Assembly: GCA_016290295.1 (NCBI GenBank) | Contig: JAEETJ010000009.1 | Coordinates: 27,794-91,793 of the forward strand | Length of the DNA: 64,000 nt | From: Bacteroidales bacterium | GTDB lineage: Bacteria; Bacteroidota; Bacteroidia; Bacteroidales; WCHB1-69 | Reading direction: 5' to 3' | Shown: piece by piece, positions 4,477 to 59,825 of the stretch | Layout of the letters: each line of letters starts with the position of its first letter | Numbering within the stretch: position 1 is the first letter of the stretch | The notes under the pieces: model-generated | Databases searched by the model: none | What the model was told of the DNA's origin: nothing | Seen by the model: the letters and a program-made list of their open reading frames with translations, nothing else | Translations under genes and position numbers: made by a program

Positions 4477-5544
4477 ATGCTATATCCGTTAAAATTCAAG
4501 CCTTTCTTTAAGGATAAAATATGGGGTGGTGACAAGATTAAGAAGATTTTGCATCGCCCTGTTGCTGATATGAAAAACTGTGGCGAAAGCTGGGAAATCT
4601 CTGCCATCGAGGACAATGTGTCGGTGGTCGCCAATGGTTTTTTCGCAGATGATAATGATTTAAATGAGCTGATAGAGGTGTATATGGGTGAGCTGTTGGG
4701 AGATAAGGTGTATGATAAATATGGGTTAGGTTTTCCGCTGTTAATCAAGTATATAGATGCTACAGATGACTTGTCGGTGCAAGTGCATCCGGATGACAAG
4801 TTGGCCCAGGAACGCTATGGTATGAATGGTAAGACGGAGATGTGGTATGTGATTCAAGCGGATGAAGGAGCGGGTTTGTATGTCGGCTTCCAAGATGGAG
4901 TTACCCGTGACCAATATTGGGATGCTGTGGAGTCTGGTACCATTGACCAGTTGCTGTGTTTCTACCCGGTGAAAAAAGGTGATTTGTTCTTTATCCCCGC
5001 AGGCACGGTTCATGCCATTGGCAAGGGTGTGCTGTTGGCTGAAATCCAGCAGCCATCGGATGTGACTTATCGTATTTTTGACTGGAATAGGGTAGATGAG
5101 CAGGGCAACAGCCGCGAACTGCACGTGGACGAAGCATTTGATGCTATTCATTTTGAGGGTGAACCTATTCAGAATGAATCAGATGCTTCTAATGCCGAGA
5201 CGTCGCATGAATCGTCTTCCACAACCCCAGCGGATGATACTGTGAAAAACACACTTCCTGCTGGCAAAATCAATTACGAAGAGAAATTTAACACTACCAG
5301 CAAATTGTTGCGTTCGGATTTTTTCAACCTGAATGAGATATATTTTGAAAAACCGTTGAAGAAGACCTACACGGAAATCGACTCCTTCATCATATACATG
5401 TGTATTGAAGGCCATGTTCACACTTTCACCGACGACGAGCAGTTTGAGCTCCGCACTGGCGAGGTGTTGCTGGTACCCGCCTGCATCTCCGAGTTGAATC
5501 TCATTCCCGAAGGAAAGAGCAGGTTGCTGGAGGTGTACCTTTAG
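4477..5544 (+). CDS. manA: Class I mannose-6-phosphate isomerase (PMI type I)
   Basis: MLYPLKFKPFFKDKIWGG...GESWEIS...LSVQVHPDD...GKTEMWYV...AGTVHAIG are typical type I PMI cupin motifs. Confidence 0.8.
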   Translation: MLYPLKFKPFFKDKIWGGDKIKKILHRPVADMKNCGESWEISAIEDNVSVVANGFFADDNDLNELIEVYMGELLGDKVYDKYGLGFPLLIKYIDATDDLSVQVHPDDKLAQERYGMNGKTEMWYVIQADEGAGLYVGFQDGVTRDQYWDAVESGTIDQLLCFYPVKKGDLFFIPAGTVHAIGKGVLLAEIQQPSDVTYRIFDWNRVDEQGNSRELHVDEAFDAIHFEGEPIQNESDASNAETSHESSSTTPADDTVKNTLPAGKINYEEKFNTTSKLLRSDFFNLNEIYFEKPLKKTYTEIDSFIIYMCIEGHVHTFTDDEQFELRTGEVLLVPACISELNLIPEGKSRLLEVYL

Positions 5545-5578
5545 GTTGCAGGTTGCAGAAGTCAGATAGCTAAGTCAA
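5544..5578. repeat. 7-bp array (GGTTGCA x2 plus 3 degenerate units) filling the whole gap between two convergent stop codons
   Basis: GGTTGCA GGTTGCA GAAGTCA GATAGCT AAGTCAA. Confidence 0.5.
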
Positions 5579-10000: not shown

Positions 10001-10020
10001 TTTAATGTGCCAATGATAAA

Positions 10021-10052
10021 AGTTGAAAGTTGAAAGTTGAAAACTGAAAGTT
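10021..10052. repeat. 7-bp array AGTTGAA x3 plus AACTGAA plus a partial unit
   Basis: Read directly from the sequence. Confidence 0.85.
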
Positions 10053-10065
10053 ATATTTTAAAATT

Positions 10066-10104
10066 CCTGACCCCTGACCCCTGACCCCTGATTCCTGATC
10101 ACTG
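10066..10104. repeat. 7-bp array CCTGACC x3, CCTGATT, CCTGATC; overlaps the rsmE stop
   Basis: Read directly. The rsmE stop (10099-10101) lies in the last degenerate units. Confidence 0.85.
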
Positions 10105-19066: not shown

Positions 19067-19648
19067 ATGACTACTGCCGACACTTTTTTTGATGTTAAAC
19101 CTACGGAATTCTCGCTGACTGCTGGCCGAATCCTGATATCGGTACCGTTTTACAACGATCCGTTCTTCAATAGAACGGTGGTGCTGCTGACGGATTATGA
19201 CGAAAAGTCATGTGCGGGGCTGGTGCTCAACAAGTCGTCAAAATTGTCGGTGCGAAAGGTGATTAGTGAAATTAAGGTGGATGACAAATTGCACATTGGC
19301 GGACCCGTGATGCCTGATGGTATCTTCTGTATTCATAATTTTGAAAATTCCAAGGCGGCCTCTAAGCTGCTGCCTGGCATATATGTCGGCTCGGATGAGG
19401 TGCTGATATCGCTGATAGAGCACAAGGCTATTCCAACCATGAAATACCGCTTCTTTGTAGGATATTCTGGCTGGTCTCCAGGACAGTTGGAGGGAGAACT
19501 GAACAAGAATATGTGGGTGATTGGTGCTGCTACCCCCGAGTTGGTCTTCGACACGCCGATTTCTAAAATCTGGGAGACTGCAGTGCGTAATCTTGGCGAT
19601 GACTACCTCCACTGGCTGAAACTCCCCAAAGTCATTGCTAGTAATTAG
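19067..19648 (+). CDS. YqgE/AlgH family (UPF0301) protein
   Basis: GRILISVPFYNDPFFNRTVVLLTDYDEKSCAGLVLNK...GGPV...FVGYSGWSPGQLEGEL. Confidence 0.8.
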   Translation: MTTADTFFDVKPTEFSLTAGRILISVPFYNDPFFNRTVVLLTDYDEKSCAGLVLNKSSKLSVRKVISEIKVDDKLHIGGPVMPDGIFCIHNFENSKAASKLLPGIYVGSDEVLISLIEHKAIPTMKYRFFVGYSGWSPGQLEGELNKNMWVIGAATPELVFDTPISKIWETAVRNLGDDYLHWLKLPKVIASN

Positions 19649-19706
19649 GTGGTAGGTGGTAGGTGGTAGGTAGTAGGTAGTAGGTAGTAGGTAGTAGGTA
19701 GTAGGG
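19646..19706. repeat. 7-bp array TAGGTGG x3 plus TAGGTAG x5 plus a degenerate unit; the first TAG is the stop codon of the YqgE-like gene
   Basis: Read directly. Confidence 0.9.
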
Positions 19707-19747: not shown

Positions 19748-19803
19748 TAGGTTACAGGTAGTAGGTAGTAGGTAGTAGGTAGTAGGGGATAGGAATTAGG
19801 GAA
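19748..19803. repeat. Second TAGGTAG-type 7-bp array (8 units, degenerate at the ends)
   Basis: TAGGTTA CAGGTAG TAGGTAG x3 TAGGGGA TAGGAAT TAGGGAA. Confidence 0.8.
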
Positions 19804-19811
19804 TTGTGTTT

Positions 19812-19846
19812 AGTTTTCAGTTTTCAGTTTTCCGTTTTCCGTTTTC
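19812..19846. repeat. 7-bp array AGTTTTC x3 plus CGTTTTC x2; encodes the C-terminal ENGKRKTEN and the stop of the radical SAM gene on the minus strand
   Basis: Read directly. Confidence 0.85.
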
Positions 19847-20734
19847 AATTTTTTTCCGTATTTTCTGCAAAATGATGTCGTATCGTTGTAGCTTCCAGGG
19901 GCTGGTACTCAGGTATTTGGGTGGTACTTCGGAGGCAAAGCGCTCTATCACAATGTCTTTGCGCAAACGCTTGACTGTCTCCACCATGAGGTCGATATAT
20001 TCGTCCATGCTGAAGCGGTAGAAATCTTCGGGATGCTCCTGAAACTCTTGCTCCATAGCCGTTCCTTTGATGATTTGCAGCTGGTGGAATTTGATGCTGT
20101 TGAGGGGCATTTGGTTGATGAGTGGAATGCCGTTCAGCCAGTCTTCTGGGGTTTCTCCAGGCAAACCGATGATAAAATGTGCACCGGTGTGAATGCCTCG
20201 TGAAGCGGTTTGTGCTACGGCCCGTTGTGCGGTGGCGAAGTCATGGCCGCGGTTGATGCGTCGCAGAGTACGGTCATAGCAGCTTTCAATGCCGTATTCA
20301 ATGCTGATGAAGGCTTGTTGTTTTAGACTGGCAATATAGTTCAGTTTTTCCTCGTCAACGCAGTCGGGGCGGGTGCCAATGATGAGCCCTTTTATTTTTG
20401 GGTGTGACAGGGCTGTCTCATATAATTTCTGTAGTTGTGCTAAAGGTGCATGGGTGTTTGAAAACGCTTGGAAATAAGCTAAATATCCTTGGCTTTCACG
20501 GCCTCGCTGCCGATGGAATTCAATGCCGTCGTTAATCTGTTGGAGGATATCTTTTTCGGATGAACAGTAGCGTGGCACGAAGGCGTTGTTGAGACAGTAG
20601 GTGCAGCCGCCAATACATACAGTACCGTCACGGTTGGGACAGCTGAATCCCGCGTCAATTGGCAGTTTCAGCACAGGTTCGCCGAAACGGTCAATGAGGA
20701 ATTGTTTGTAAGTATAGTAGTGGTCTGACATCAT
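19817..20734 (-). CDS. TIGR01212-family radical SAM protein
   Basis: DAGFSCPNRDGTVCIGGCTYC. I prefer the start MMSDHYYTYKQF (ATG at 20734), which lies 33 nt downstream of a -7 box. The last 9 codons and the stop lie in a 7-bp repeat array. Confidence 0.8.
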   Translation of the reverse strand: MMSDHYYTYKQFLIDRFGEPVLKLPIDAGFSCPNRDGTVCIGGCTYCLNNAFVPRYCSSEKDILQQINDGIEFHRQRGRESQGYLAYFQAFSNTHAPLAQLQKLYETALSHPKIKGLIIGTRPDCVDEEKLNYIASLKQQAFISIEYGIESCYDRTLRRINRGHDFATAQRAVAQTASRGIHTGAHFIIGLPGETPEDWLNGIPLINQMPLNSIKFHQLQIIKGTAMEQEFQEHPEDFYRFSMDEYIDLMVETVKRLRKDIVIERFASEVPPKYLSTSPWKLQRYDIILQKIRKKIENGKRKTEN

Positions 20735-20766
20735 GAAAGGTGTTAATGAACACAATAATTTTATGG

Positions 20767-20774
20767 CAAAAATA
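20767..20774 (-). promoter_or_regulatory. Bacteroidota -7 box
   Basis: Reverse complement TATTTTTG, 33 nt upstream of ATG 20734. This supports the shorter start. Confidence 0.45.
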
Positions 20775-20852
20775 CGGAAAAAATAAATTCGTTGAAATCG
20801 CATTTGCCACATTCGCTGCATACCCTCACACGGGACGACGAATTAACATGTG

Positions 20853-21006: not shown

Positions 21007-21489
21007 ATGAAAGAAAATAAGACAACACCAAACACCTTTGCTCGCATATATATTCATACGGTATTTACTGTGAAAAACAGAGACTCATTAATATCTGATT
21101 TATGGCGTGATAGATTATATTCGTACATGAGCTCAATTATTTCCAATAATGGTAATAATGTTATAGCTATAGGTGGAATGCCGGATCATTTGCATATTTT
21201 GCTTAGCATGCATAACACCACAATACCATTGTCAGATTTGATGCGTTTGGTCAAGGGTGATAGCTCCCGATGGATTAACGAAAATAAATTGTCTGTACGT
21301 AGATTTGGTTGGCAACCAGGGTATGGCGCATTTTCTTGTGGACCTAAAGATATTGATGTTATTGCGAATTATATCAGAAATCAGGAGAAACATCATGCCA
21401 ACAAAAAATTTGTTGACGAATATAAACAATTGTTGATTCGAGAGGGTGTGAAATTTGATGAAAAATTTATTTTCTATTCGATTGAATAA
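21007..21489 (+). CDS. IS200/IS605-type Y1 (HUH) transposase-like protein, RAYT-like
   Basis: ARIYIHTVFTVKNR, HUH motif MPDHLHILLS, WQPGYGAFS, NQEKHH. The gene is flanked by inverted CCGCATAGC / GCTATGCGG copies and by GC hairpins. Confidence 0.75.
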   Translation: MKENKTTPNTFARIYIHTVFTVKNRDSLISDLWRDRLYSYMSSIISNNGNNVIAIGGMPDHLHILLSMHNTTIPLSDLMRLVKGDSSRWINENKLSVRRFGWQPGYGAFSCGPKDIDVIANYIRNQEKHHANKKFVDEYKQLLIREGVKFDEKFIFYSIE

Positions 21490-26568: not shown

Positions 26569-26603
26569 AATTGTCAATTATCAATTGTTAATTGTTAACT
26601 GCA
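26569..26603. repeat. 7-bp array AATTGTC, AATTATC, AATTGTT x2, AACTGCA; overlaps the yggS stop and last codons
   Basis: Read directly. Confidence 0.8.
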
Positions 26604-27265
26604 TAGTTTCTCGCCCCAAAAATCGCACTGCCCACGCGGATCAGCGTGCTGCCTTCCTCAATGGCGATGGGGTAGTCCTCGCTCATGCCCATCGACAATT
26701 CCTTGAAGTCGGGATTGTTGCTGAAATATTTGGTTTTCAGTAGATTGAAGTATTCGTGCAGGGTGTGGAACTCGCGGTGGATTTGCTCTTGGTTATCGGT
26801 CAAGCTGGCCATGCCCATCACGCCACAAATTTTGATGTTTTGCAAATCGGCGAAGCCGGGGTCGTTGAGCATGGCCTCGCATTCGTCCAGCAGAAAGCCG
26901 AACTTGGTCTCTTCCTGTGCGATGTGGAATTGCAGGAGGCAGTTCAGTACCCGTTCATGCTTGATGGCGTGTTTGTTCACTTCCTTCAGCAGCTCGTAGC
27001 TGTCAATGCTGTGAATCAGGCTGACAAAAGGTGCGATATATTTGATTTTGTTGGTTTGCAGGTGACCGATGAGATGCCATTCAATATCTTTGGGCAGGTG
27101 CTCGTATTTGCCTTTCAGCTCTTGTGCCTTGTTCTCCCCGAAAATCCGTTGTCCCTCGTTGTACAGGGTCATGATGTCCTCTTCGGGCTTGGTCTTGGAG
27201 ACCGCCACCAGTCGCACGCCTTCCGGCAGGTTATCTTTGATGTTGTGATATGCTTGTAAGTTCAT
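26588..27265 (-). CDS. yggS: YggS-family pyridoxal-phosphate homeostasis protein
   Basis: RLVAVSKTKP, IGHLQTNK, GLMGMA-type motif (VMGMAS) and ELSMGMSEDY. Confidence 0.88.
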   Translation of the reverse strand: MNLQAYHNIKDNLPEGVRLVAVSKTKPEEDIMTLYNEGQRIFGENKAQELKGKYEHLPKDIEWHLIGHLQTNKIKYIAPFVSLIHSIDSYELLKEVNKHAIKHERVLNCLLQFHIAQEETKFGFLLDECEAMLNDPGFADLQNIKICGVMGMASLTDNQEQIHREFHTLHEYFNLLKTKYFSNNPDFKELSMGMSEDYPIAIEEGSTLIRVGSAIFGARNYAVNN

Positions 27266-27268
27266 TTT

Positions 27269-27298
27269 AGGTTACAGGTTACAGGTTACAGGGGTCAG
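27269..27298. repeat. 7-bp array AGGTTAC x3 plus AGGGGTC, filling the yggS / four-helix-bundle gene gap
   Basis: Read directly. It is inverted relative to the array at 27702..27757. Confidence 0.85.
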
Positions 27299-27302
27299 AT
27301 TA

Positions 27303-27677
27303 TTAATTTGACGTGTTAGAGTTTAATTTTTTTGTTATTGTCATTATTATTTTTCCAATTTCAGATAAAAGATTCATTATAGGCTGTATTTCTGCCTCAG
27401 ACAAATAGTTGATGTTGACGCATAGTATCAATTGTGTCTCCAATTCACATACAGAACCATTGGCAATATATAAGAATTGAAGATATTCTTTCTTTGAATT
27501 TCTACCAAAACCTTCGGCAATGTTAGAGGGAATGGATATTGCGGCTCTTCGCATCTGGTCACTCAGGGTGTAGGTTTCCTCTTTTGGTAATTTTTTGATT
27601 ATTTTGTATAGAAATGTGGTCATCTTCATTGCCTTTTGCCAAACAATCAAATCCTTGTATGTATTAACTTTTATCAT
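27303..27677 (-). CDS. Four-helix-bundle protein (23S rRNA intervening-sequence protein / Avd-like family)
   Basis: LIVWQKAMKM...LPKEETYTLSDQMRRAAISIPSNIAEGFGR.SKKEYLQFLYIANGSVCELETQL. Confidence 0.88.
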   Translation of the reverse strand: MIKVNTYKDLIVWQKAMKMTTFLYKIIKKLPKEETYTLSDQMRRAAISIPSNIAEGFGRNSKKEYLQFLYIANGSVCELETQLILCVNINYLSEAEIQPIMNLLSEIGKIIMTITKKLNSNTSN

Positions 27678-27701
27678 TAAGTATAAATCTTAAATTACTA
27701 A

Positions 27702-27757
27702 TTTCTGAAACCTGTTCCCTGAAACCTATTTTCTGTCACCTGTCACCTGTAACCTGA
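27702..27757. repeat. 7-bp array of NNNCTGW units (…TTTCTGT CACCTGT CACCTGT AACCTGA); inverted partner of 27269..27298
   Basis: The reverse complement GGTCAGGTTACAGGTGACAGGTGACAG matches the left array at 19 of 22 positions in the best register. It encodes RLQVTGDRK and the stop of the metallophosphoesterase. Confidence 0.8.
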
Positions 27758-28562
27758 CCACTCCAATCCTCTGTCCCTTCTTCCCCGTCTGCAAGATATA
27801 GGTTCCATTGACGATTTTAGGCTCTTTCAGTACGGTGTGTGTATGGCCGCCCACGATAACATCAATACCTTTCACCTGACTGGCCAACATCATGTCATCG
27901 GGATTATCCTCGGTTCCGCAATCTAAACCTAAATGGGACAGGCAGATAACATAGTCGCATTTTTCCGTTTCACGGAGTTCTTTCACCATGCAGTCGGCCA
28001 CGTCAATGGCGTTGAGATATTTGATGTCTTTGTAATTTTGGGGCGAAGTCAGTGCTTTGATGTCGGTGAGCAAACCAAAAATGCCAATTCGTTTGCCATC
28101 CATTTCAATGATGACATATTTTTTGACAATATTCTTCAGCTTTTTATTGAAAAACAAATAGTTGGCGCAGACAATGGGAAATTTGGCCTTGGCCAACTGC
28201 TTGGCTAACATTTTGCTACCATTGTCAAATTCGTGATTGCCTAATGCGGCTGCTTGATAGCCCAGCAGATTCATGAATTTGATTTCAGTGGCACCTTTGA
28301 AGAAGTTGAAATAGGGTGTGCCCTGAAAATAATCTCCCGCATCCAACAGAAGCACATTCTTGTTTTCTTGTCGCACCTGGTCGATGATGGCGGCACGACC
28401 ATAAATGCCCCCTACCATAGAGCCGTCTTTGTCTTGCAGGGGCTCGATTTGACTGTGGGTATCATTGGTATGCAAAATCACAAGAGGCGTTTGTGCCGAC
28501 ACCTGGAATGCCACAAGTGCCCATATCAAGCATAGCGTGAAAAGTGCGAGTGTCTTTTTCAT
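27726..28562 (-). CDS. Metallophosphoesterase, 5'-nucleotidase N-terminal-type
   Basis: Signal peptide. ILHTNDTHS, LLLDAGDYFQGTPYFN, LGNHEFDNG and GGHTH motifs. Confidence 0.8.
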   Translation of the reverse strand: MKKTLALFTLCLIWALVAFQVSAQTPLVILHTNDTHSQIEPLQDKDGSMVGGIYGRAAIIDQVRQENKNVLLLDAGDYFQGTPYFNFFKGATEIKFMNLLGYQAAALGNHEFDNGSKMLAKQLAKAKFPIVCANYLFFNKKLKNIVKKYVIIEMDGKRIGIFGLLTDIKALTSPQNYKDIKYLNAIDVADCMVKELRETEKCDYVICLSHLGLDCGTEDNPDDMMLASQVKGIDVIVGGHTHTVLKEPKIVNGTYILQTGKKGQRIGVVRLQVTGDRK

Positions 28563-32120: not shown

Positions 32121-32176
32121 AATAGTTAACTTTTAGAAGTTAATAGTTAATAGTTAATAGTTAATAGTTAATAGTT
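32121..32176. repeat. 7-bp array AATAGTT (1 unit, 2 degenerate units, then 5 perfect units)
   Basis: Read directly. It lies upstream of tyrS. Confidence 0.9.
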
Positions 32177-32239
32177 GCGGAGTGAATATTACTTTCAGTT
32201 TTCCGTTTTCTATACTGACCCCTGATCACTATATGAAAA

Positions 32240-32288
32240 ACTATCAACTATTAATTATTAATTGTCAATTGTCAATTGTCAATTGTCT
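32240..32288. repeat. 7-bp array ACTATCA ACTATTA ATTATTA ATTGTCA x3 ATTGTCT; its left part is the inverted complement of the AATAGTT array
   Basis: Read directly. It overlaps the stop and last 8 codons of the 32265..32684 gene. Confidence 0.85.
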
Positions 32289-32684
32289 CTCTCCCTCCTT
32301 CGCCTGTCTCAACGATACATACCACTTCCCGTCACGCTTCAGCACATTGGTGGATTCGTTGCCGGTCTTGCCATTGCACAGGTGGACGATGCATTTGCAT
32401 AGTGCGGTGGAGTCGGTGAGCTGCTTTACCGTGATTTCATCCAGGGTGATATGGTCACAACCTTCAAACTTTTCGGGAGGGAAGGCATGTTGGAAGAAAT
32501 TGATGACAGGCACGGATTCGGGAGTCACATATTTTTTTGCCTCATCAAAATGTCCGGTATATAAGCTCTCGGAGAATGCTTTGGTAATACTTTTCGGGGA
32601 ATGATACGGATTTTTTGCGGTGTCACAGGAAATCCCTGCCAGCAAAATAATCAGTCCAACGAAAAAAATATTCAATCTTTTCAT
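32265..32684 (-). CDS. Small hypothetical lipoprotein
   Basis: MKRLNIFFVGLIILLAGISC lipobox. The last 8 codons and the stop lie in the AATTGTC array. Confidence 0.55.
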   Translation of the reverse strand: MKRLNIFFVGLIILLAGISCDTAKNPYHSPKSITKAFSESLYTGHFDEAKKYVTPESVPVINFFQHAFPPEKFEGCDHITLDEITVKQLTDSTALCKCIVHLCNGKTGNESTNVLKRDGKWYVSLRQAKEGERQLTIDN

Positions 32685-50599: not shown

Positions 50600-53500
50600 A
50601 TGCTGATGAGACGTGGTGTCATATTGCTGATATTCAGTTTGTTTCTGCTTCCAATTGCGTTGCAGGGACAAAGTTGCAATATGCAAAATGGCAGTACTGT
50701 AACGCTTCCGCTTTCATGTCCTCAAAGTGTGTTTTTTTATGATCCTCCCGATCCTCCTGGTGATTGTGATTTTCAGTTAACGGAGAATGATTCTTTGATA
50801 ACTCATGTTAGTTATAATGCTCCTTTGTGTGAAGGTGATACCATGGTATTAACTTGCACGAATCCAATTGATGGGGTTACATACCATTGGTGGGGACCAG
50901 AAAATTGGTCTGCTACTACCACGGTGCCAATTGTGATGATTCCCAATGTAAGCATGGCTAATGCAGGCCAATATTTCTTATCGTTGATGGGAGCAGGTAT
51001 TACTGTTGATACGGCACATGTCAATGTTTTTGTTGCTGCACTTCCTGTAGTTACGCTGACTTCCAATCATGACACCATTTGTAGTCAAACTTCGGTGATA
51101 CTTACTGCCAACGTGGCGAATAACACTTTTGTCAGATATTTATGGTTGTCAGGTAATGTAAGTGATACAACAAATTCAGAAGAAAATCCTTTAGAGGTAA
51201 GTCCACAAACTACCACGACTTATCGTGTGATTGCTACTAATGAATGGGAATGTACGAGTTCCACAAGCAAAACAATTACTGTACGTCCTTTGTCTGATGT
51301 ATCTATATTAGGAGATTCCCTAATGTGTCTTGGAGATAGCATATTGTTAACAGCTTTGTTTGACAACTTTGATTGCAGTTGTCATTGGAATACAGGTGAC
51401 ACTTCACATGTAATATGGGTGTATCCGACAGAAGATGCTGATTATGAAGTAAGTGTGACTAATAATTATGGGTGTACATCCTCAGATACGAAACATGTCG
51501 ATGTTCTTTATGGTACTCATAATGTGTTGACAGAAAGGGCCTGTGAGGTTTATATATGGCATGACCAGACCTATGACACAACAGGTGTTTATACATACGC
51601 TTATACCAATGATGAAGGCTGTGCCAGTGTAGATACGTTGTATTTGTCTGTAAATCAAAATTTTCAGATTGATGAGAATCCTGTTATGGAGGACTCATGT
51701 ATAAATGGTCAGCTTGCTTTGGAAGCTTGCAATGGCAATCAAGTAACTCTGTCTGCACCGGAGGGATATGACAGTTACCGGTGGAACAATGGCAGTGCCT
51801 CGGCAACGGCTACCTATACGGTGAATGGTACAACCACGGCAAGTTGTCTGGTTTCCACTACGGATTGCGAACTAACCCTTATGGCCACGCTATTGACACA
51901 GAGCGGACAACCTGCAGTCAATAGTGTGATTTATGATACCATCTGCGAGGGTGAATGCTACACTGACAATTTTTATAATCTGCCACCACAGAATGAGATA
52001 GGGACACATGTGTTCAGTAATACTTTCTACAATGTCAATACTTGTTCTGGAGGCTGCCTCACTACAACCTTATATCTTACGGTGCAACAACATTTATACC
52101 ATATTTATGATACAGCTTGCGTAGGACAGAATTACAATATCTTTGGACTGCAATTGTCGGACTTGACAGTAGGGGAGCGTTTGATAAGTCGGGATTTTCA
52201 TAGAAATAATGGTTGCGACTCCAGTGTTACGCTACATTTGAAAGTAGAACCTCCATTCACTATCTCCAATACCATTACAGGTGATACTGCTGTGTGCCGT
52301 AATGGTTATGATACTTATATCTTGCCGAATGCTAATAATTTTGCCTCTTTTCACTGGAATGTGCCGGAAGGCGTAAATGTTATTGGTGGTCAGGAGACTC
52401 CTGTTGTGAGCCTGTCCTTTACGGATGAGGCATTCACTCCTGCCCATATTACAGTGATAGGTACCCACCTTTGTGGCATAGATAGTGTTTCGTTGAGTGT
52501 GACGCATTTTCCAGTATATGACATTGTTATTCAGGATAGTATCTGTATTGGTGACGAATACCACCGCTATGGTTTTGACTTGGCACAGCAGGATAGTGCA
52601 GGCTTGTTCACCTATACGAATAGCGGTACTACCATACATGGTTGCGATAGTGTTGTGACTCTGCAATTGAAGGTGAATCCGACATACGCAGTGAATGATT
52701 CCCTGACTATCTGTGCCAGTGAATTGCCATACACATGGAATGGGGTTTTGTTTACGGAAGCAGGCATACAAACGACCACTTTGCAGACGGTGAATGGCTG
52801 TGACAGCATGGTGACGATGACCTTGATCGTGAACCCGATCTACGCGGTGCCCGATTCTATGACGATTTGTGCCAGCGAACTGCCATACACCTGGAATGAG
52901 GTTGAATTCACGGCTGCAGGCACTCAAAATGTTACTTTGCAGACGATAAATGGCTGCGACAGTGTGGTGACAAAGGTCTTGACCGTGAACCCGATTTACG
53001 CGGTGCCCGATTCCATGATGATTTGTGCCAGCGAACTGCCATACACCTGGAATGATGTTGTGTTCACGGCTGCCGGCTCTCAAAATGTTACTTATCAGAC
53101 GGTGAATGGCTGTGACAGTGTGGTGACGATGGTCTTGACTGTGAACCCGACCTATGCGGTGCCCGATTCCATGATTGTTTGTGACACTGAACTTCCATAC
53201 ACCTGGAATGGGGTTGAATTCACGGCTGCTGGCACTCAAACGGCCACTTTGCAGACGATAAATGGCTGTGACAGCGTGGTAACAATGGTCTTGACAGTGA
53301 ACCCGACCTACGCGGTGCCTGATTCCATGACGATATGTGCCAGTGAATTGCCATACACATGGAATGAGGTTGAGTTTACTGAAGCTGGCATTCAAACGGC
53401 CACTTTGCAGACCGTGAATGGCTGTGACTCTGTAGTGGCAATGGTTTTGACCGTAAACCCAACCTATGCTGTATCCGATTCCATGACGATTTGTGACAGC

Positions 53501-56500
53501 GAACTGCCATACATCTGGAATGAGATTGAATTCATTGATGCTGGCACTCAAAATGTTACTCTGCAGACGATAAATGGCTGTGACAGTGTGGTGACGATGG
53601 TCTTGACCGTGAACCCAACCTATGCGGTACCTGATTCCATGATTATTTGTGACACTGAACTGCCATACACTTGGAATGAAGTTGAATTCACGGAAGCTGG
53701 TACACAAAATGTTACTTTGCAGACTGTAAATGGCTGTGACTCTGTGGTGACAATGGTCTTGACTGTGAACCCGACCTATGCGGTGCCCGATTCCATGACG
53801 ATTTGTGATAGTGAACTGCCATACACATGGAATGGGGTTGAATTCACTGCTGAAGGCACACAAACAGCCACTTTGCAGACAGTAAATGGCTGCGATAGCG
53901 TGGTAACGATGTTCTTGACCGTAAACCCGACCTATGTGGTGCCCGATTCCATGACAATATGTGCCAGCGAACTACCATACACTTGGAATGGGGTTGAATT
54001 CACGACTGCAGGCACACAAACAGCCACTTTGCAGACAGTAAATGGCTGTGACTCTGTGGTGACAATGGTTTTGACCGTTAACCCGACCTATGCAGTGCCC
54101 GATTCCATGACGATTTGTGACAGTGAACTGCCATATACCTGGAATGAGATTGAATTCACTGAAGCTGGCACGCAAACTGTTACACTGCAGACCGTGAATG
54201 GCTGTGACTCTGTGGTAACAATGGTCTTGACTGTGAACCCGACCTACGCGGTGCCTGATTCCATGACAATATGTGCCAGTGAACTGCCATACACCTGGAA
54301 TGGGGTTGAATTCACGGAAGCTGGCACTCAAACGGCCACTTTGCAGACAGTAAATGGCTGTGACTCTGTGGTGACAATGGTTTTAACCGTGAACCCGACC
54401 TACGCGGTGCCTGATTCCATGACGATATGTGCCAGTGAATTGCCATACACATGGAATGAGGTTGAGTTTACTGAAGCAGGCATACAAACAGCCACTTTGC
54501 AGACAGTAAATGGCTGTGACTCTGTGGTGACAATGGTATTGACCGTGAACCCGACCTATGCAGTGCCCGATTCTATAATCATTTGTGACATTGAATTACC
54601 ATATGTTTGGAATGAGGTTGAGTTTACTGAGGCTGGCACGCAAACTGTTACACTGCAGACCGTGAATGGCTGTGACTCTGTGGTAACAATGGTCTTGACT
54701 GTGAACCCGACCTACGCGGTATCCGATACTATGACTATTTGTGCCAACGGATTGCCATACATGTGGAATAACGTTGAATTTACTGAAGCTGGCACGCAAA
54801 CTGTTACACTACAGACCGTGAATGGTTGCGATAGCATTGTGACAATGACTTTGGTGGTGACGACAACATACATTGTCTCTGATGAACGAGATATTTGTGA
54901 CAACGAGTTGCCCTACCTATGGAATGAGGTTGAATTTACGGCGGCAGGTACACAAAATGTTACTTTGCAGGCGGTGAATGGCTGTGACAGTGTGGTAATA
55001 ATGTTTTTGACGGTGAATCCAATATACACAGTGCCAGATTCCATGACGATTTGTGACAGTGAATTGCCTTATATTTGGAACGAGGTTGAATTCACTGAAG
55101 CTGGCTCTCAAACGGTCACATTGCAGACGCTGAATGGCTGTGACTCTGTGGTGACAATGTTCTTGACTGTAAACCCGACCTACGCGGTGCCTGATTCCAT
55201 GACGATTTGTGACAGTGAACTGCCATACATCTGGAATGAGATTGAATTCATTGAAGCAGGTATACAAACAGCCACTTTGCAGACCGTGAATGGCTGTGAC
55301 TCTGTGGTGACAATGGTCTTGACCGTGAACCCGACTTACGCGGTACCCGATTCCATGACGATTTGTGCCAGTGAACTGCCATACACCTGGAATGAGATTG
55401 AATTCACTGAAGCTGGCACTCAAACGGCCACTTTGCAGACAGTAAATGGCTGTGACTCTGTGGTGACGATGGTTTTGACAGTGAACCTAACTTATGCGGT
55501 GCATGATTCCACGACGATATGTGCCAGTGAATTGCCATACACATGGAATGAGGTTGAGTTTACTGAAGAATGCACACAAACAGCCACTTTGCAGACCGTG
55601 AATGGCTGTGACTCTGTGGTGGCAATGGTTTTGACCGTGAACCCAACCTATGCTGTATCCGATTCCATGACGATATGTGACAGTGAACTGCCATACATCT
55701 GGAATGAGATTGAATTCATTGAAGCAGGTATACAGACAGCTACTTTGCAGACCGTGAATGGCTGTGACAGTGTGGTGACGATGGTCTTGACCGTGAACCA
55801 AACGGTGACTAATTTTGATGAACAAATCGTTTGCGACAGCCTCACTTGGTTGGATGGCATAACATATTACGCCAGCACAAATATTCCAACTTATACCTAT
55901 GTCGGTGGTGCTGCAAACGGCTGTGACTCCATCGTGACCTTGCATCTTATTGTAAATCAATCTTATATTATTGAGGATACGCTCACAATTTGTGAAAATG
56001 AACTGCCTTATACTTACGGTGATACTGTTTTTGGAATAGAAACCACTTCAATGTCAGTTCATTATATTCATAATTCAACGGCTTTGGCATGTGATAGTAT
56101 TACTTTATTGACGATAGAGCTTGTTCCTTCTTCTTATAACACATTGGATACCATTGTTTTGGAAAACGATCTTCCGCTGTGGATGAATGGTGTGGCCTAT
56201 TCAACGGATACCACATTTGCTCTGACTTTTGCAGGAGCGAATGATGCTGGCTGCGACAGTGTCGTAACAGTCCATATAAATGTTCTTTATAACGATATGG
56301 TCTATGTGGATACTACCATTTGTGACAATGATTTCCCATTTACATGGAATGGAGTGGTTTTCACTACAGCGTGTACGCAAAGTGTCGTATATACCGCCAC
56401 AAATGGTGTGGATAGTGTTGTGACGATGACGGTGAATTATAATCCGACCACATACGGCTTCATGGATACCACAGTCTTGCAGAATGACCTGCCCTTTGTG

Positions 56501-59500
56501 TATTATGGAGAATCCTATTCGATACCGGGCATTTATACGCAAACTATTGAGAATGCTGCTGGTTGTGACAGTGTTGTGACCATCAATTTGGAGGAAATAT
56601 ACAATGTGGTAGCATTCGCTGACACTGTGGTGTGTGCTATTAATACGCCTTTCGAATGGAATGGTTACATCTTTACGCAAACCGCTACGCAGATGGTGAT
56701 ATTGCCTGCATCTACGGGTGCTGACAGTATGTTAGTGATGACGGTGACGGTGGTTTATACCACGTATGGTAGCATGGATACTACTGTGGTGGAGAATGAC
56801 TTGCCGTTTGTTTGGAATGGAGAGTCCTATACGACACCGGGTTATAAAATCCAGATGTTGTCTAATTATGCGGGCTGTGACAGTATCCTCACCATAAATC
56901 TGCATGTACTTTATAATGTTACATTGCCTGCTGATAGTACGGTGTGCGAGAGCGCATTGCCCGTGATATGGAACGGACAATCATTTGATGCTGAAGATAT
57001 TCAAGCTGCAACACATACTATCATCCATTCGGCTCTGTTGACTGCTTCAACAGGTGTGGACAGTACGGTGGTGATGACAGTAGTGGTTAATCCCACAACA
57101 TACGGTGTTGTTGATACTACAATCATCGAAAATGACTTGCCATTAGTGCTGAATGGAGAATCCTATCCTGTTGCGGGAACTCATACTCAAACTTTCAGTA
57201 ATTCAAATGTTTACGAATGTGATAGTGTGCTTACTATTCATCTCACTGTGTTGAATAATGTGACGGTTTATAGGGATTCGATTCTATGCCAAACTGAATT
57301 GCCATTGACTTGGAATGGAATCACTTTCGAATTAAATACTACTGAACCATTTGCTACACCAGTTATGCTCTTGGATTCGGCTGTTTTAACGGCTTCAACG
57401 GGTGTGGACAGTACGGTGGTAATGACGGTAGTGGTGAATCCAACGACATACGGTACTTTGGATACCACCATTTTGGAAAATGATTTGCCACTGTTGTTAA
57501 ATGGCCAGTCTTATATGACAGACAGCATTTTTAGCCAAACACTGGCTGGTGTCAATAGCAATGGCTGCGACAGCATGCTGACCGTCCACCTAACCGTTCG
57601 TTATAACGTAACAACATTTTTATATGACACTATTTGTGAGAGCCAGTTGCCTTTCACTTGGAATGGTATGACATTTGTGGCGGACTCTATAGCTGAAGGA
57701 AGCCATAGTTTCACGCAGTCAGCCATATTGACGGCCTCGACGGGAGTGGATAGTACCGTGGTGATGACGGTGCATGTCCTTTATGCCACAACAGGTATAG
57801 ATGAACAGGTTGCATGTGACAGCTATACCTGGATAGATGGACAAACCTATACGTCTAGTACAGAAACAGCAACTTACGTTTTGACCAATGAAGTTGGTTG
57901 TGACAGTGTGGTTACCCTGCATTTGACCGTGTATCACAGTGTGACAAGTCAAGATACTTTGGTATTGGTGGAAAACCAGTTGCCATATTATTTTGCTGCT
58001 GCGGATACTACCATAACTTTAGGAGCAGCTGTCGAGTCTCAGTTTAGTTACCATTTGTCCACCATCCATGGATGTGACTCATTGGTAGAACAGACGGTCA
58101 TAGTCCATTATAATACGAGTGCAACGCTTGACACGATGGTTTGTGCGGCATCATTGCCATACACTTGGCATGGCCATGTGTTTACTGAAGCTGGAGTATA
58201 TACAGACACACTGCTCAATAACAATGGAAGCAGCCATTATCTGACCTTGCATTTGACCGTGAGCAATCCAACGGTTACGATGCAAAACATTACACACATC
58301 AATTGTTATGGTGCCTCTACGGGTAGTGTAGGGGTGCTGGTAAGTGGCGGAGTGTCACCTTATACTCCTATTCATTGGGAGAACGAAGCAGGGACTACGG
58401 TTTCGACTACGGCCCAGCTGAATAACCAGCCGGCTGGAAAATATCGTCTGTTCGTGACGGATGCTTTAGGCTGTCAGGTGACGGATAGTGTTATACTGAC
58501 ACATCTGAACGACAGTATGGTGCCAGGTGTCATCGCTGCCAATCAGGGTGTGTGTGAAGGAACTCATTTGCAGACCTTTACAGGAACTGCCGCATCGGGT
58601 GGGGCAGGTAGCGTTTACCAGTGGCAGATTTCCACTAACGGTACCACATGGAATCCCGCTCCAGCACCAAATAACAGTCAAAACTACAATTATGCTCAGG
58701 CGGTTAACTCTCCCTTCTCGCTCCGCAGGGCATGGATTAGCGCGGCCTGTGGTACTGTATATAGCAATGTGGTCAATGTCATTGTCTATCATAATGTAGC
58801 GGACACTATCTACGATGTAGTTTGTCAGGGTTATCCGTATCAAGACAATGCTTTTGACATCTCCGCTACCGCCACGTCAACACCAGGTGTGTTGCCATGT
58901 TCCATTCATCTGCAAAGCGCCCACGGCTGCGACAGTATGGTGACACTGCTCCTGAGCATTACCCCTTCGTCATACGCAGAGGAGAGCTTGACAATATGCC
59001 AGAGCGAATTGCCATACACGTATAACGACACCACTTTCATGCCAGGTACGCCTCATCTTTCAACTTTCATCTTTCATCTTTCAACTTCAGAAGGTTGTGA
59101 TAGCATCCATACCCTGCATTTAACGGTAAATCCAGTGTATGAACTGAACTTTGAGGATGTGGTTTGCGAAGGCGATGCGTATGACAACCACGGCTTTGTG
59201 GTGCCATCAACCCAGACTGTCGGCGTGCCGGAACTGAACTTGACCCAGCAATTGCAAAGCCAGCTGGATTGCGACAGCATCGTGAACTTACATCTGACTG
59301 TGGTGGATACTTCTATCGCCATAGTATCGTTGACATCTGATTTCTGTGAAGAATATTCTGCAGAACTGTCTGTTGAGACCAACATGACAAACTATCTATG
59401 GAGTACAGGCGAGACTTCCCCGACCATTACCGTGACACAGCCCGGCACCTATACCGTGACCGCCACTCAGGATCATTGTTCAGTTTCTACATGGTATCAG

Positions 59501-59794
59501 ATAGAAACCTGTGAACTTAACGTATACTTGCCGAATGCCATCACACCCAATGACGATGGTATTAACGATTACTTCTGTCTCCACGAAAGATACTTGCCTA
59601 TGATCGCTGACTTCGAAATACGTATCTATACTCGTTGGGGCGAGTTGATATACTATTCCGATGACAAAAATTTCAAGTGGAATGGTGAGTATCGTGGCCG
59701 CATTAATCGCAATATTATATACACTTATCTGATTAATTTCACCGATAACCGAGGCATCCCGTATCAGCTCACAGGAACCATTACCGTGCTGTAA
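50600..59794 (+). CDS. Giant (3064 aa) T9SS-secreted repeat protein with a type-B C-terminal domain
   Basis: Signal peptide MLMRRGVILLIFSLFLLPIALQGQ. About 34 Cys-containing modules end in GCDS-x-V-T-x-x-L-x-V. There is one SprB-like repeat (INCYGASTGSVGVLVSGGVSPY). The C-terminus reads LPNAITPNDDGINDYF...IRIYTRWGELIYYS...WNGEYRG. Confidence 0.85.
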   Translation: MLMRRGVILLIFSLFLLPIALQGQSCNMQNGSTVTLPLSCPQSVFFYDPPDPPGDCDFQLTENDSLITHVSYNAPLCEGDTMVLTCTNPIDGVTYHWWGPENWSATTTVPIVMIPNVSMANAGQYFLSLMGAGITVDTAHVNVFVAALPVVTLTSNHDTICSQTSVILTANVANNTFVRYLWLSGNVSDTTNSEENPLEVSPQTTTTYRVIATNEWECTSSTSKTITVRPLSDVSILGDSLMCLGDSILLTALFDNFDCSCHWNTGDTSHVIWVYPTEDADYEVSVTNNYGCTSSDTKHVDVLYGTHNVLTERACEVYIWHDQTYDTTGVYTYAYTNDEGCASVDTLYLSVNQNFQIDENPVMEDSCINGQLALEACNGNQVTLSAPEGYDSYRWNNGSASATATYTVNGTTTASCLVSTTDCELTLMATLLTQSGQPAVNSVIYDTICEGECYTDNFYNLPPQNEIGTHVFSNTFYNVNTCSGGCLTTTLYLTVQQHLYHIYDTACVGQNYNIFGLQLSDLTVGERLISRDFHRNNGCDSSVTLHLKVEPPFTISNTITGDTAVCRNGYDTYILPNANNFASFHWNVPEGVNVIGGQETPVVSLSFTDEAFTPAHITVIGTHLCGIDSVSLSVTHFPVYDIVIQDSICIGDEYHRYGFDLAQQDSAGLFTYTNSGTTIHGCDSVVTLQLKVNPTYAVNDSLTICASELPYTWNGVLFTEAGIQTTTLQTVNGCDSMVTMTLIVNPIYAVPDSMTICASELPYTWNEVEFTAAGTQNVTLQTINGCDSVVTKVLTVNPIYAVPDSMMICASELPYTWNDVVFTAAGSQNVTYQTVNGCDSVVTMVLTVNPTYAVPDSMIVCDTELPYTWNGVEFTAAGTQTATLQTINGCDSVVTMVLTVNPTYAVPDSMTICASELPYTWNEVEFTEAGIQTATLQTVNGCDSVVAMVLTVNPTYAVSDSMTICDSELPYIWNEIEFIDAGTQNVTLQTINGCDSVVTMVLTVNPTYAVPDSMIICDTELPYTWNEVEFTEAGTQNVTLQTVNGCDSVVTMVLTVNPTYAVPDSMTICDSELPYTWNGVEFTAEGTQTATLQTVNGCDSVVTMFLTVNPTYVVPDSMTICASELPYTWNGVEFTTAGTQTATLQTVNGCDSVVTMVLTVNPTYAVPDSMTICDSELPYTWNEIEFTEAGTQTVTLQTVNGCDSVVTMVLTVNPTYAVPDSMTICASELPYTWNGVEFTEAGTQTATLQTVNGCDSVVTMVLTVNPTYAVPDSMTICASELPYTWNEVEFTEAGIQTATLQTVNGCDSVVTMVLTVNPTYAVPDSIIICDIELPYVWNEVEFTEAGTQTVTLQTVNGCDSVVTMVLTVNPTYAVSDTMTICANGLPYMWNNVEFTEAGTQTVTLQTVNGCDSIVTMTLVVTTTYIVSDERDICDNELPYLWNEVEFTAAGTQNVTLQAVNGCDSVVIMFLTVNPIYTVPDSMTICDSELPYIWNEVEFTEAGSQTVTLQTLNGCDSVVTMFLTVNPTYAVPDSMTICDSELPYIWNEIEFIEAGIQTATLQTVNGCDSVVTMVLTVNPTYAVPDSMTICASELPYTWNEIEFTEAGTQTATLQTVNGCDSVVTMVLTVNLTYAVHDSTTICASELPYTWNEVEFTEECTQTATLQTVNGCDSVVAMVLTVNPTYAVSDSMTICDSELPYIWNEIEFIEAGIQTATLQTVNGCDSVVTMVLTVNQTVTNFDEQIVCDSLTWLDGITYYASTNIPTYTYVGGAANGCDSIVTLHLIVNQSYIIEDTLTICENELPYTYGDTVFGIETTSMSVHYIHNSTALACDSITLLTIELVPSSYNTLDTIVLENDLPLWMNGVAYSTDTTFALTFAGANDAGCDSVVTVHINVLYNDMVYVDTTICDNDFPFTWNGVVFTTACTQSVVYTATNGVDSVVTMTVNYNPTTYGFMDTTVLQNDLPFVYYGESYSIPGIYTQTIENAAGCDSVVTINLEEIYNVVAFADTVVCAINTPFEWNGYIFTQTATQMVILPASTGADSMLVMTVTVVYTTYGSMDTTVVENDLPFVWNGESYTTPGYKIQMLSNYAGCDSILTINLHVLYNVTLPADSTVCESALPVIWNGQSFDAEDIQAATHTIIHSALLTASTGVDSTVVMTVVVNPTTYGVVDTTIIENDLPLVLNGESYPVAGTHTQTFSNSNVYECDSVLTIHLTVLNNVTVYRDSILCQTELPLTWNGITFELNTTEPFATPVMLLDSAVLTASTGVDSTVVMTVVVNPTTYGTLDTTILENDLPLLLNGQSYMTDSIFSQTLAGVNSNGCDSMLTVHLTVRYNVTTFLYDTICESQLPFTWNGMTFVADSIAEGSHSFTQSAILTASTGVDSTVVMTVHVLYATTGIDEQVACDSYTWIDGQTYTSSTETATYVLTNEVGCDSVVTLHLTVYHSVTSQDTLVLVENQLPYYFAAADTTITLGAAVESQFSYHLSTIHGCDSLVEQTVIVHYNTSATLDTMVCAASLPYTWHGHVFTEAGVYTDTLLNNNGSSHYLTLHLTVSNPTVTMQNITHINCYGASTGSVGVLVSGGVSPYTPIHWENEAGTTVSTTAQLNNQPAGKYRLFVTDALGCQVTDSVILTHLNDSMVPGVIAANQGVCEGTHLQTFTGTAASGGAGSVYQWQISTNGTTWNPAPAPNNSQNYNYAQAVNSPFSLRRAWISAACGTVYSNVVNVIVYHNVADTIYDVVCQGYPYQDNAFDISATATSTPGVLPCSIHLQSAHGCDSMVTLLLSITPSSYAEESLTICQSELPYTYNDTTFMPGTPHLSTFIFHLSTSEGCDSIHTLHLTVNPVYELNFEDVVCEGDAYDNHGFVVPSTQTVGVPELNLTQQLQSQLDCDSIVNLHLTVVDTSIAIVSLTSDFCEEYSAELSVETNMTNYLWSTGETSPTITVTQPGTYTVTATQDHCSVSTWYQIETCELNVYLPNAITPNDDGINDYFCLHERYLPMIADFEIRIYTRWGELIYYSDDKNFKWNGEYRGRINRNIIYTYLINFTDNRGIPYQLTGTITVL
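52673..55792 (+). repeat. 20 tandem in-frame copies of a 156-bp (52-aa) unit inside the giant gene
   Basis: Consensus unit: VNPTYAVPDSMTICASELPYTWNEVEFTEAGTQTATLQTVNGCDSVVTMVLT. Unit starts at 52673 and 52829 confirm the 156-bp period. The last unit ends at 55792. Confidence 0.95.
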
Positions 59795-59825
59795 TCAGGG
59801 GACAGGATACAGGTAGCAGGTGGTA
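59795..59825. repeat. 7-bp array TCAGGGG ACAGGAT ACAGGTA GCAGGTG immediately after the stop of the giant gene
   Basis: Read directly. The units are degenerate. Confidence 0.6.

Follow-up and report, generated by a model that had tools for sequence, protein, structure and literature searches.

Heptanucleotide tandem arrays in the gene spacers of a rumen Bacteroidales and their association with S23p genes

The question raised by this locus is why short tandem arrays with units of seven nucleotides recur from spacer to spacer along a single bacterial contig. The stretch that we analyzed (the window) comprises 64,000 nucleotides, positions 27,794 to 91,793 of contig JAEETJ010000009.1, from an uncultured rumen Bacteroidales. 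An initial annotation of the window, made from the letters alone, had described a family of at least 12 such arrays at gene ends and had taken them for a related, spreading element. We found that the arrays are a dense occurrence, in a new lineage and with numerous unit variants, of a known kind of heptamer repeat, and that two of them bracket a gene of the S23p family, an arrangement that recurs at S23p genes elsewhere. Our preferred explanation, to which we give a probability of roughly 0.55, is that the arrays are heptanucleotide repeats of a known kind, some of them being the arms of S23p cassettes and the solitary ones being orphan arms or offshoots of slippage.

Period-7 arrays and the S23p cassette in the window

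We scanned the window for tandem repeats with periods of 4 to 12, using identical scoring and a threshold score of at least twice the period, and also ran Tandem Repeats Finder. There were 11 arrays with period 7 and none with periods 4-6 or 8-12, and dinucleotide-preserving shuffles of the window gave no arrays at this threshold. The arrays are specific to period 7 rather than spread over random periods. The places listed in the initial annotation were recovered by Tandem Repeats Finder and by our own scan, with 59792-59825 read directly; the array at 5543 is present, but has only 2.3 perfect units and one degenerate unit. The bounds given by the repeat searches are 5543, 10012-10052, 10063-10099, 19646-19705, 19756-19786, 19801-19852, 26569-26598, 27265-27292, 27698-27756, 32121-32176 and 32236-32287; the part lists below give the bounds read from the sequence. 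The arrays have the properties of heptanucleotide long simple-sequence repeats, a class that includes the short tandemly repeated repetitive (STRR) sequences of cyanobacteria: head-to-tail 7-nt units are over-represented, their location is mostly intergenic, and their length varies by whole units, as expected of slipped-strand behavior.

The arrays are not an artefact of assembly, because independent assemblies reproduce the sequence of the window. A JGI contig and Logan contigs were identical to the window throughout the aligned stretches, and the contig of an NCBI metagenome-assembled genome (MAG) had four differences in 20,699 bases. Ends of Logan contigs fall exactly at arrays (10020 and 19695), so the repeats do break metagenome assemblies.

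Two of the arrays enclose a gene and together with it form a cassette (27265-27759), with the following parts.

27265..27299, minus strand: 3' arm of the S23p cassette, reading (AGGTTAC)3.4 AGGGGTCAG on the plus strand
27303..27677, minus strand: S23p (four-helix-bundle) gene of 124 aa, in the loop between the arms
27698..27759, minus strand: 5' arm of the S23p cassette, with sense strand GGTCAGGTTACAGGTGACAGGTGACAG AAAATAG GTTTCAG GGAACAG GTTTCAG, G-type

The cassette lies in an operon, in the spacer that separates a metallophosphoesterase gene from a YggS-like gene. The metallophosphoesterase gene ends within the 5' arm, which contains its last ~10 codons and its TAG stop (27726-27728); the 3' arm is C-type on the sense (minus) strand (CCCCTGTAACCTGTAACCTGTAACC) and ends 4 nt short of the ATG of the YggS-like gene. 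The arms (27269-27299 and 27732-27756; 25 nt, 88% complementary, 432 nt apart) pair in both the minimum free energy (MFE) and the centroid predicted folds. The product of the enclosed gene matches PF05635 and bAvd, scores 132 bits against TIGR02436 (cut-off 24), and has as its best match in the PDB the structure 2GSC (XCC0516; E 1.4e-19). An open reading frame (ORF) of the S23p family between terminal inverted repeats that can form a long stem is the make-up of an S23p intervening sequence. In the 23S rRNA intervening sequences of Leptospira, Coxiella and Brucella, as in the cassette, S23p sits in the loop, the terminal stem is long (~25-40 bp), and heptamers whose copy number differs among strains adjoin the ORF. 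The cassette differs from them in lying in the spacer of an mRNA operon instead of a 23S rRNA helix. It is not an insertion in 23S rRNA, being placed between two protein-coding genes of an operon, and no Rfam family, including rRNA, reached its gathering score in the window.

Inverted pairing extends beyond the cassette. Among 125 arrays in 1.57 Mb of Bacteroidales loci, 18 had an inverted partner within 800 nt, compared with 3 in the control, and most inverted pairs were gene-less hairpins with loops of 2-82 nt. The gene-less hairpin of the window pairs 32140-32176 with 32239-32275 around a 62-nt loop (78-91% complementary), and the predicted fold of 32140-32275 has an MFE of -37.7 kcal/mol, compared with -20.8 ± 3.2 for shuffles (z = -5.35). 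The same 1.57 Mb contain two S23p genes, both between inverted arrays: the one in the window and one in a related locus (L022), whose 39-nt arms are 92% complementary and made of AGTTAGC and AACTGCT units. A more sensitive hidden Markov model search of the Bacteroidales loci gave zero further copies of S23p.

S23p genes and their heptamer flanks in other genomes

We used the S23p protein to scan metagenomes and obtained 80 loci, the samples being of rumen, human gut, sediment or marine origin; 74 of these loci had at least 100 nt on both sides of the gene. Controls were windows 750-900 nt off the gene (n = 107) and, for the complementarity of the arms, flanks paired at random. The best period in the 150 nt upstream of S23p was 7 in 57 of the 74 loci and 8 in 11; downstream, it was 7 in 44 of 74. 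Period 7 was best in 15 of the 107 control windows. The two flanks were complementary with a score of at least 15 at 34 of the 74 loci, compared with 4 when flanks were mismatched. The arms were also strongly polar (83 loci), with G exceeding C in 41 of 44 5' arms and C exceeding G in 42 of 47 3' arms (p = 1e-16). The association of S23p with heptamers is statistically strong. The literature that we searched contained no paper tying the S23p family to heptamer repeats in general, and within that literature the link looks unreported.

The units of the arms follow the protein. Clusters of S23p proteins with at least 70% identity have common families of arm units (GAGATTT/CTCAAAT; TAGTCGT or TAGTATA/ACTAACG), and in the cluster to which the S23p of the window belongs the units are AGGTAGA, AGGTTAC or AGGGGAC. 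One protein cluster was found in at least eight unrelated genomic contexts. In one locus (L089), an 82%-identical S23p gene lies between nrdD and nrdG; its 5' arm, (AGGTAGN)x12, runs from the stop of nrdD, and its 3' arm ends ~10 nt before the start of nrdG. The unit AGGTAGT, found in solitary arrays of the window (19646-19786), is also a unit of that 5' arm, and the unit AGGGGAC is found both in the array at 59792..59825 and in an S23p arm of a more distant Bacteroidales locus (L090). The initial annotation's view of a related, spreading element is borne out to the extent that the same units form the arms of S23p cassettes and that the cassette occurs in unrelated contexts; slippage, described below, also acts.

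S23p genes in a plasmid collection were mostly from Nostoc, Calothrix and Anabaena, and most of the cyanobacterial copies that we examined lie between heptamer arrays. Period 7 was best in both flanks at 7 of 8 plasmid loci, and the inverted arms were clear in at least five.

Nostoc edaphicum plasmid: inverted arms TAGGGAG/CTCCCTA
Calothrix plasmid: inverted arms AGGGTGT/CTACACC
Anabaena sp. 90 plasmid pANA02 (L173): arms (ACAGGTG)n/(CTGTCAC)n, between cas6 and cas4 of a CRISPR-Cas locus
Geminocystis and Riemerella plasmids: clear inverted arms
Stanieria plasmid: weaker arms
Nostoc PCC 7120 plasmid: 3' arm only, beside an ISL3 transposase gene

The arm unit of Anabaena sp. 90 (GTGACAG) is a unit of the cassette in the window. 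At some loci the arms have period 8, for example GGAGGGCA and its complement; these are L175 (a Gemmatirosa plasmid), L138, L150, L152 and L163. The 0.2 Mb of contigs selected for S23p contained 20 more period-7 arrays lying more than 350 nt from the gene (~100 per Mb), compared with at most 4 for other periods, and many of these distant arrays had units of the same families as the arms.

S23p genes bracketed by inverted heptamer arrays are found in the Bacteroidota, cyanobacterial and metagenomic loci that we examined, a Gemmatimonadota plasmid has arms of period 8, and published data add heptamers at two S23p genes of Proteobacteria. The intervening sequence in the 23S rRNA of Coxiella (Warrier et al. 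2016, PMC4990558) has an S23p ORF and a terminal stem of 28 bp, at which RNase III cuts; it also contains 2-3 GACAGAT heptamers whose count varies among strains; the element was deemed selfish or possibly mobile. In Xanthomonas, the supplement of Rehm et al. 2015 (PMC4692102) lists a GGGAATC x4 array over the start of XCC0516, an S23p gene (PDB 2GSC) next to bccP, and that study made no link to S23p.

Our preferred explanation suggests how a cassette of this kind might behave. An array and its inverse on one transcript could zip into a stem of 25-40 bp in any 7-nt register. By analogy with the intervening sequences of 23S rRNA, such a stem would loop out the enclosed gene or short loop and might be a substrate for RNase III. 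A cassette would then be tolerable in an operon spacer and do little harm, because the stem would loop out its contents. The S23p protein may recognize or bind the repeats. The many solitary arrays are most likely orphan arms, or offshoots of the element family expanded by slippage, and they would survive where spacers tolerate them, before starts as a G-poor leader and after genes as early stops.

S23p is a relative of Avd, the accessory protein of diversity-generating retroelements (DGR), and is pentameric; we know of no function for the family, though structures have been solved. We put forward tentatively the possibility that heptamer arrays and S23p are two halves of one widespread system, in which a cassette inserts into operon spacers and rRNA helices, its arms fold into register-tolerant stems that are cut by RNase III or bound by the protein, and the pentameric S23p recognizes or propagates the repeats; the heptamer periodicity seen in STRR, GGGAATC and TAACTGA repeats and in the window would then largely be its footprint. 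The window points to a concrete partner for the unexplained heptamer repeats, and if the link to S23p is causal, an old descriptive puzzle becomes testable.

Placement, polarity and turnover of the arrays

The remaining arrays of the window, including the two arms and the loop of the gene-less hairpin, are as follows.

5542..5565, plus strand: array TAG GTTGCAG GTTGCAG AAGTCAG, G-type on the sense strand, in a convergent spacer; opens with the stop codon of a mannose-6-phosphate-isomerase-like gene (4477..5544; gene call, Pfam)
10012..10052, minus strand: array, (AAAGTTG)~5 on the plus strand and C-type (CAACTTT) on the transcribed minus strand; downstream of rsmE and upstream of the rpsA promoter
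10063..10103, minus strand: array AGTGATC AGGAATC (AGGGGTC)x3, as read on the minus strand, which is the sense strand (G-type); the rsmE stop, TGA (10099-10101), lies within it
19646..19705, plus strand: array (TAGGTGG)3(TAGGTAG)5.6; its first triplet is the TAG stop of a YqgE/AlgH (DUF179) gene (19067..19648)
19756..19810, plus strand: array (AGGTAGT)4.4, followed by degenerate units (GGGGATAGGAATTAGGGAATTG)
19804..19852, plus strand: array (AGTTTTC)~6, spanning the last codons and the stop (19817-19819) of a radical-SAM gene (19817..20821, minus strand)
26569..26598, minus strand: array (AATTGTC/AATTATC/AATTGTT)x4, spanning the stop of the YggS-like gene (TAA, 26588-26590; gene at 26588..27265, minus strand)
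32121..32176, minus strand: 3' arm of the gene-less hairpin, (AGTTAAT)n on the plus strand, AACTATT on the sense strand, C-type; stops ~25 nt upstream of the tyrS start (32095)
32177..32238, minus strand: 62-nt hairpin loop, with fragments of other unit types (TTCAGTTTTCCGTTTTC, CTGACCCCTGATCACT)
32239..32287, minus strand: 5' arm of the gene-less hairpin, AACTATC, AATTATT and (AATTGTC)x4 on the plus strand; spans the TGA stop (32265-32267) of an ORF (32265..32684, minus strand)
59053..59087, plus strand: array (TCATCTT/TCAACTT)x5, a coding part of a giant ORF, translated ...HLSTFIFHLST...; absent from the initial list
59792..59825, plus strand: array TAA TCAGGGG ACAGGAT ACAGGTA GCAGGTG GTAACG; opens with the stop of a 3064-aa PKD_6/CHU_C protein

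Most arrays do lie at stops or in spacers, as had been claimed, but it does not hold that none is in the middle of a gene (59053-59087 lies ~700 nt inside the 3064-aa ORF), nor that they are confined to gene 3' ends: 27265-27299 and 32121-32176 are directly upstream of start codons. Two of the recurrences of substrings that had been reported between loci are exact; the third, AATTGTCAATTGT at 26569, has one mismatch and reads AATTGTCAATTAT. As regards features of phase variation, most arrays follow a stop or alter the last few codons only, and the array at 59053 is in-frame coding sequence. Arrays alter the C-termini of annotated proteins.

For a larger sample, we scanned species-representative genomes with the neighboring GlgA/GlgP fusion protein and obtained 80 related loci (1.49 Mb) from MAGs of gut and rumen Bacteroidales. 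The initial annotation had proposed such a scan of relatives, and the excess of period 7 recurred in it, with 87 arrays compared with at most 12 for any other period. The load was uneven, up to 12 arrays per 24 kb in some genomes and none in many. With genes called as longest ORFs, ~82% of array bases lay within the ~8% of DNA that is non-coding. The density of arrays per kb of intergenic DNA was 1.10 in co-directional, 0.87 in convergent and 0.44 in divergent spacers. About 30% of the arrays in co-directional spacers adjoin the downstream start codon, ending 0-12 nt before it; together with the arrays in divergent spacers, these go against placement at 3' ends only. Arrays in co-directional spacers were closer to the upstream stop in 48 cases and to the downstream start in 27 (p = 0.02), yet the bias was not significant where a spacer held one array and left at least 30 nt free (22 arrays towards the stop, 16 towards the start). 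We therefore rejected a strict 3'-end preference and conclude that the preference for the 3' side is moderate and non-exclusive.

That many arrays begin at or just past stops, and that paired arrays form strong predicted hairpins, would be expected if they were transcription terminators or stabilizers of RNA 3' ends, a role suggested in the initial annotation. We regard this as very improbable. None of the 51 terminator-like matches (a GC-rich stem followed by a T run) at 5000-44999 overlaps an array, so the arrays do not have the form of intrinsic terminators. The solitary arrays are stemless, and arrays also occur in divergent spacers, inside operons and, in some cases (27265-27299, 32121-32176), in short co-directional spacers right before starts.

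The orientation of the arrays depends on their position. No single rule relates orientation to transcription: the sense strand was G-rich in 43 arrays and C-rich in 29, a difference that is not significant. On the sense strand within co-directional spacers, G exceeded C in 27 of 34 near-stop arrays and C exceeded G in 9 of 12 near-start arrays (Fisher p = 0.0013). This polarity, G-rich near stops and C-rich near starts, matches that of the 5' and 3' arms of S23p genes. The near-stop arrays are unusually poor in C (8%, compared with 17-19%); the near-start arrays are G-poor and A-rich, like ordinary array-free leaders of the same genomes. We also considered stop codons in all three frames as a selected feature, and rejected them as an orientation-specific signal: stops were present in 31 of 34 arrays on the sense strand and in 30 of 34 on the antisense strand, an even balance that does not support a 'fail-safe stop' role.

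The near-start arrays also bear on the idea that the arrays are cis sites for a host protein (ribosomal protein S1 or a cold-shock protein, for example) that binds RNA or single strands and that tunes translation of the neighboring gene; a role in translation of the neighboring cistron was proposed for TAACTGA repeats by MacGregor (PMC4679880). C/A-rich, G-poor arrays ending 0-12 nt short of the start codon in ~30% of co-directional spacers, an A-rich sense strand in 46 arrays compared with 27, and units containing AAC or AACT that resemble TAACTGA would all suit such sites. The excess of arrays at stops over starts does not, nor do the 74 unit classes found among 125 arrays and the lack of any TAACTGA tandem in the window. 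A sequence-specific regulator fits poorly because the units differ between strains that are 97% identical, and we consider cis sites improbable as an account of the family.

Despite their diversity, the units share a pattern. An alignment of 125 consensus units, with rotation and strand left free, reached 4.48 bits, whereas 20 letter-shuffled control sets averaged 3.72 and did not exceed 3.89. This supports the view that the arrays are a loose family with a common pattern beyond base composition, as the initial annotation had proposed. G runs are too unevenly spread among the units for G-quadruplexes or i-motifs, non-B structures of DNA or RNA as proposed for the GGGAATC repeats of Xanthomonas, to be a likely common basis, and of the alternatives that we weighed this seems the least probable. 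Some arrays do contain regularly spaced G runs, for instance GGGGTCAGGGGTCAGGGGTCAGG (10066-10098) and the GG-N5 repeats (19646-19786), but G runs are altogether lacking from about half of them (AGTTAAT, AATTGTC, AGTTGAA, AGTTTTC), and most G-type units only have GG, so that the structures would be weak, with two tetrads.

A side observation concerns the unit GGTTTAG/TTTAGGG, which forms arrays in four related loci (L028 1-25, L070 8-63, L022 649-707 and L020 23746-23778). We take this unit to be identical to the telomere repeat of plants, and such arrays could mislead screens for contamination.

Comparison of strains indicated that array sites persist while their units turn over. Contigs of two other samples (runs X7 and X9) have a 35-bp deletion of 5 units in the array at 19646..19705 (joint 19651->19687), and one other sample (run X5) has a 14-bp deletion of 2 units at 27705. 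In a related strain (L005) that is ~97% identical over the flanking genes, the BLAST alignment breaks exactly at the array sites. L005 retains arrays there, in many cases built from different units: where the radical-SAM gene ends, its units are AATTATT/AATTGTT, compared with AGTTTTC in the window, and at 26569 there is one extra unit together with substitutions. In ~14 related species, the spacer that follows the glgA/glgP fusion gene contains an array, each starting at the stop codon, with units that are related yet distinct (TAGTTAG, TAATTAG, CAATTAA, GATTAGA, GTGATTA, GTTTCAG). Unit sequence also drifts gradually along long arrays. The S23p cassette itself is replaced in L005 by an unrelated 102-aa ORF and is present at that site in the more distant L090. 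A candidate joined site without the S23p gene in run X9 (27292->27730) has 21 nt on one side and possibly belongs to another locus; it was not used. The arrays are strain-level markers.

The 35-bp and 14-bp indels demonstrate that slippage occurs, and the initial annotation's choice of spreading rather than slippage is therefore not an either/or. Polymerase slippage was proposed for heptamer repeats by Mrazek et al. 2007, according to the summaries of that work in PMC4679880 and PMC4692102, and Mori et al. (PMC6344855) state that clues to their function are lacking. The arrays could accordingly be purely a mutational by-product, in which a lineage-specific 7-nt replication slippage generates them, selection clears them from genes and promoters, and neither a tie to S23p nor a function exists. 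Such a process would suit the indels in multiples of 7, the drift of units along long arrays, the array inside a coding region (59053), a density in divergent spacers that is lower and not zero, the equal frequency of stops on both strands, the leader-like composition of near-start arrays, and the ~85% of arrays that are solitary. It leaves unexplained why S23p genes from many phyla have period-7 arms so much more often than control windows, a pattern into which Coxiella and XCC0516 also fit, why the arm units track S23p protein clusters across unrelated contexts, why the arms are strictly polar, and why close relatives range from 0 to 12 arrays per 24 kb. We therefore think it rather unlikely that slippage is the whole explanation.

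Several observations weigh against the cassette explanation that we prefer. An inverted partner is lacking for ~85% of the Bacteroidales arrays, and S23p genes (2) are ~60 times rarer than arrays (125) in the 1.57 Mb, so that shared units and polarity are what ties the solitary arrays to the cassettes. Since the composition of near-start arrays is that of ordinary G-poor leaders, their polarity can be the effect of a filter. The gene calls in the related loci come from the longest-ORF heuristic. In L051 (24844-25421), inverted arrays surround a 134-aa DUF1801/YdhG-like ORF and no S23p gene, and therefore the arms are not exclusive to S23p. S23p genes might merely insert into, or be kept in, hairpins that already existed.

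Arrays of this kind are not new to the Bacteroidota: MacGregor 2015 (PMC4679880) described TAACTGA repeats from Beggiatoaceae, Cyanobacteria and five Bacteroidetes, the last with other heptamers as well. Like the arrays of the window, the TAACTGA repeats are heptamers in spacers, often directly upstream of starts and in fixed orientation; other heptamers lie in the same spacers in Gramella and Aequorivita, and the repeats are missing from close relatives with equal gene order. The window does not belong to the TAACTGA family. It has four single and no tandem copies of TAACTGA, it has related units, such as AAACTGA and TAACTAT, instead, and most of its arrays adjoin stops.

The repeats described by Rehm et al. 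2015 (PMC4692102), GGGAATC in Xanthomonas and GGGGA(C/T)T in Nostoc, resemble the arrays of the window in several respects. They have 2-26 copies and are 89-93% intergenic, the upstream ORF ends a mean of 28 nt away, compared with 160 nt to the next ORF, and they are mainly between co-directional genes and rare between divergent ones. In Xanthomonas, the positions of arrays are kept across species while length and sequence vary, and 70-75 of ~185 arrays form inverted pairs. The arrays of the window likewise are intergenic, keep their sites while changing their units, and form inverted pairs. The Xanthomonas genomes each have one dominant G-rich unit, whereas the window, from a rumen Bacteroidales, has many unit families, half of them A/T-rich and without G runs.

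Repetitive extragenic palindromic (REP) sequences, bacterial interspersed mosaic elements (BIME) and miniature transposable elements with inverted repeats (MITEs) resemble the arrays in being short, dispersed, intergenic repeats that are often near gene 3' ends and can form hairpins. They differ from them in form, since the arrays are tandem direct repeats rather than single imperfect palindromes and have neither a conserved sequence nor a target-site duplication. We looked for a REP-associated tyrosine transposase and rejected the sole candidate: the only Y1 transposase gene in the window (21007..21489, plus strand) scored 39.9 bits against a cut-off of 80. The gene is of the IS200/IS605 type (70.6 bits; cut-off 55) and has no tie to the arrays, which are thus not REP or BIME elements with such a transposase. 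Two side observations concern this gene. It is kept at the equal site in the 97%-identical strain, and beside it, at 20849-20927, contigs of two samples have a joint that goes back 79 with 38 inserted letters.

Canonical STRR units are CCCCAGT, TTGGTCA and CAACAGT. None of the three has a tandem copy in the window, and STRR hosts are Cyanobacteria whereas the window comes from a Bacteroidales, so the arrays are not STRR in the strict cyanobacterial sense. The likeness to STRR seen in the initial annotation holds for their general form, tandem non-coding heptamers with several unit families per genome.

RNA contigs and other features of the window

Contigs from rumen metatranscriptomes show that rpsA is highly expressed. 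These contigs stop at 9843-9844, and a TAnnTTTG motif of the Bacteroidetes type (TATTTTTG, 9861-9868, minus strand) lies just upstream, which suggests a transcription start of rpsA near 9844. At the arrays, where the RNA contigs break, the metatranscriptomes yielded only high-depth unitigs of 31-37 nt or contigs that belong to other loci. Short RNA contigs of high depth that consist solely of the unit type of the 10012..10052 array were found and are not specific to that locus.

The spacers contain a second family of motifs, with sites at 9926-10014 and 26493-26564 in the window and at 12530-12760 in L005. GGGGAGT is repeated at intervals of 15-25 nt in 9926-10003, and similar GGGGAGT RNA contigs occur in rumen metatranscriptomes. 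The spacer motif ATGTGCYAAT has four copies in the window, compared with 0.5 expected, and two of them form a hairpin at 26493-26523.

Among the genes of the window, the 3064-aa PKD_6/CHU_C protein (50600..59794; type IX secretion) contains a 156-bp (52-aa) unit repeated 20 times in tandem at 52673-55799, the copies being 82% alike. The GlgA/GlgP protein (22218-26483, minus strand) is a 1421-aa fusion of a GlgA-like glycogen synthase and a glycogen phosphorylase that is kept in hundreds of Bacteroidales genomes. A 377-aa protein with ThsB_TIR and TIR_2 domains (2143-3276, minus strand) looks like a component of a Thoeris-type defence system. There are also two pairs that resemble toxin-antitoxin systems, a HicA toxin with a neighboring 138-aa ORF (39708-40346) and a HepT-like gene that overlaps a 98-aa ORF (60240-60867).

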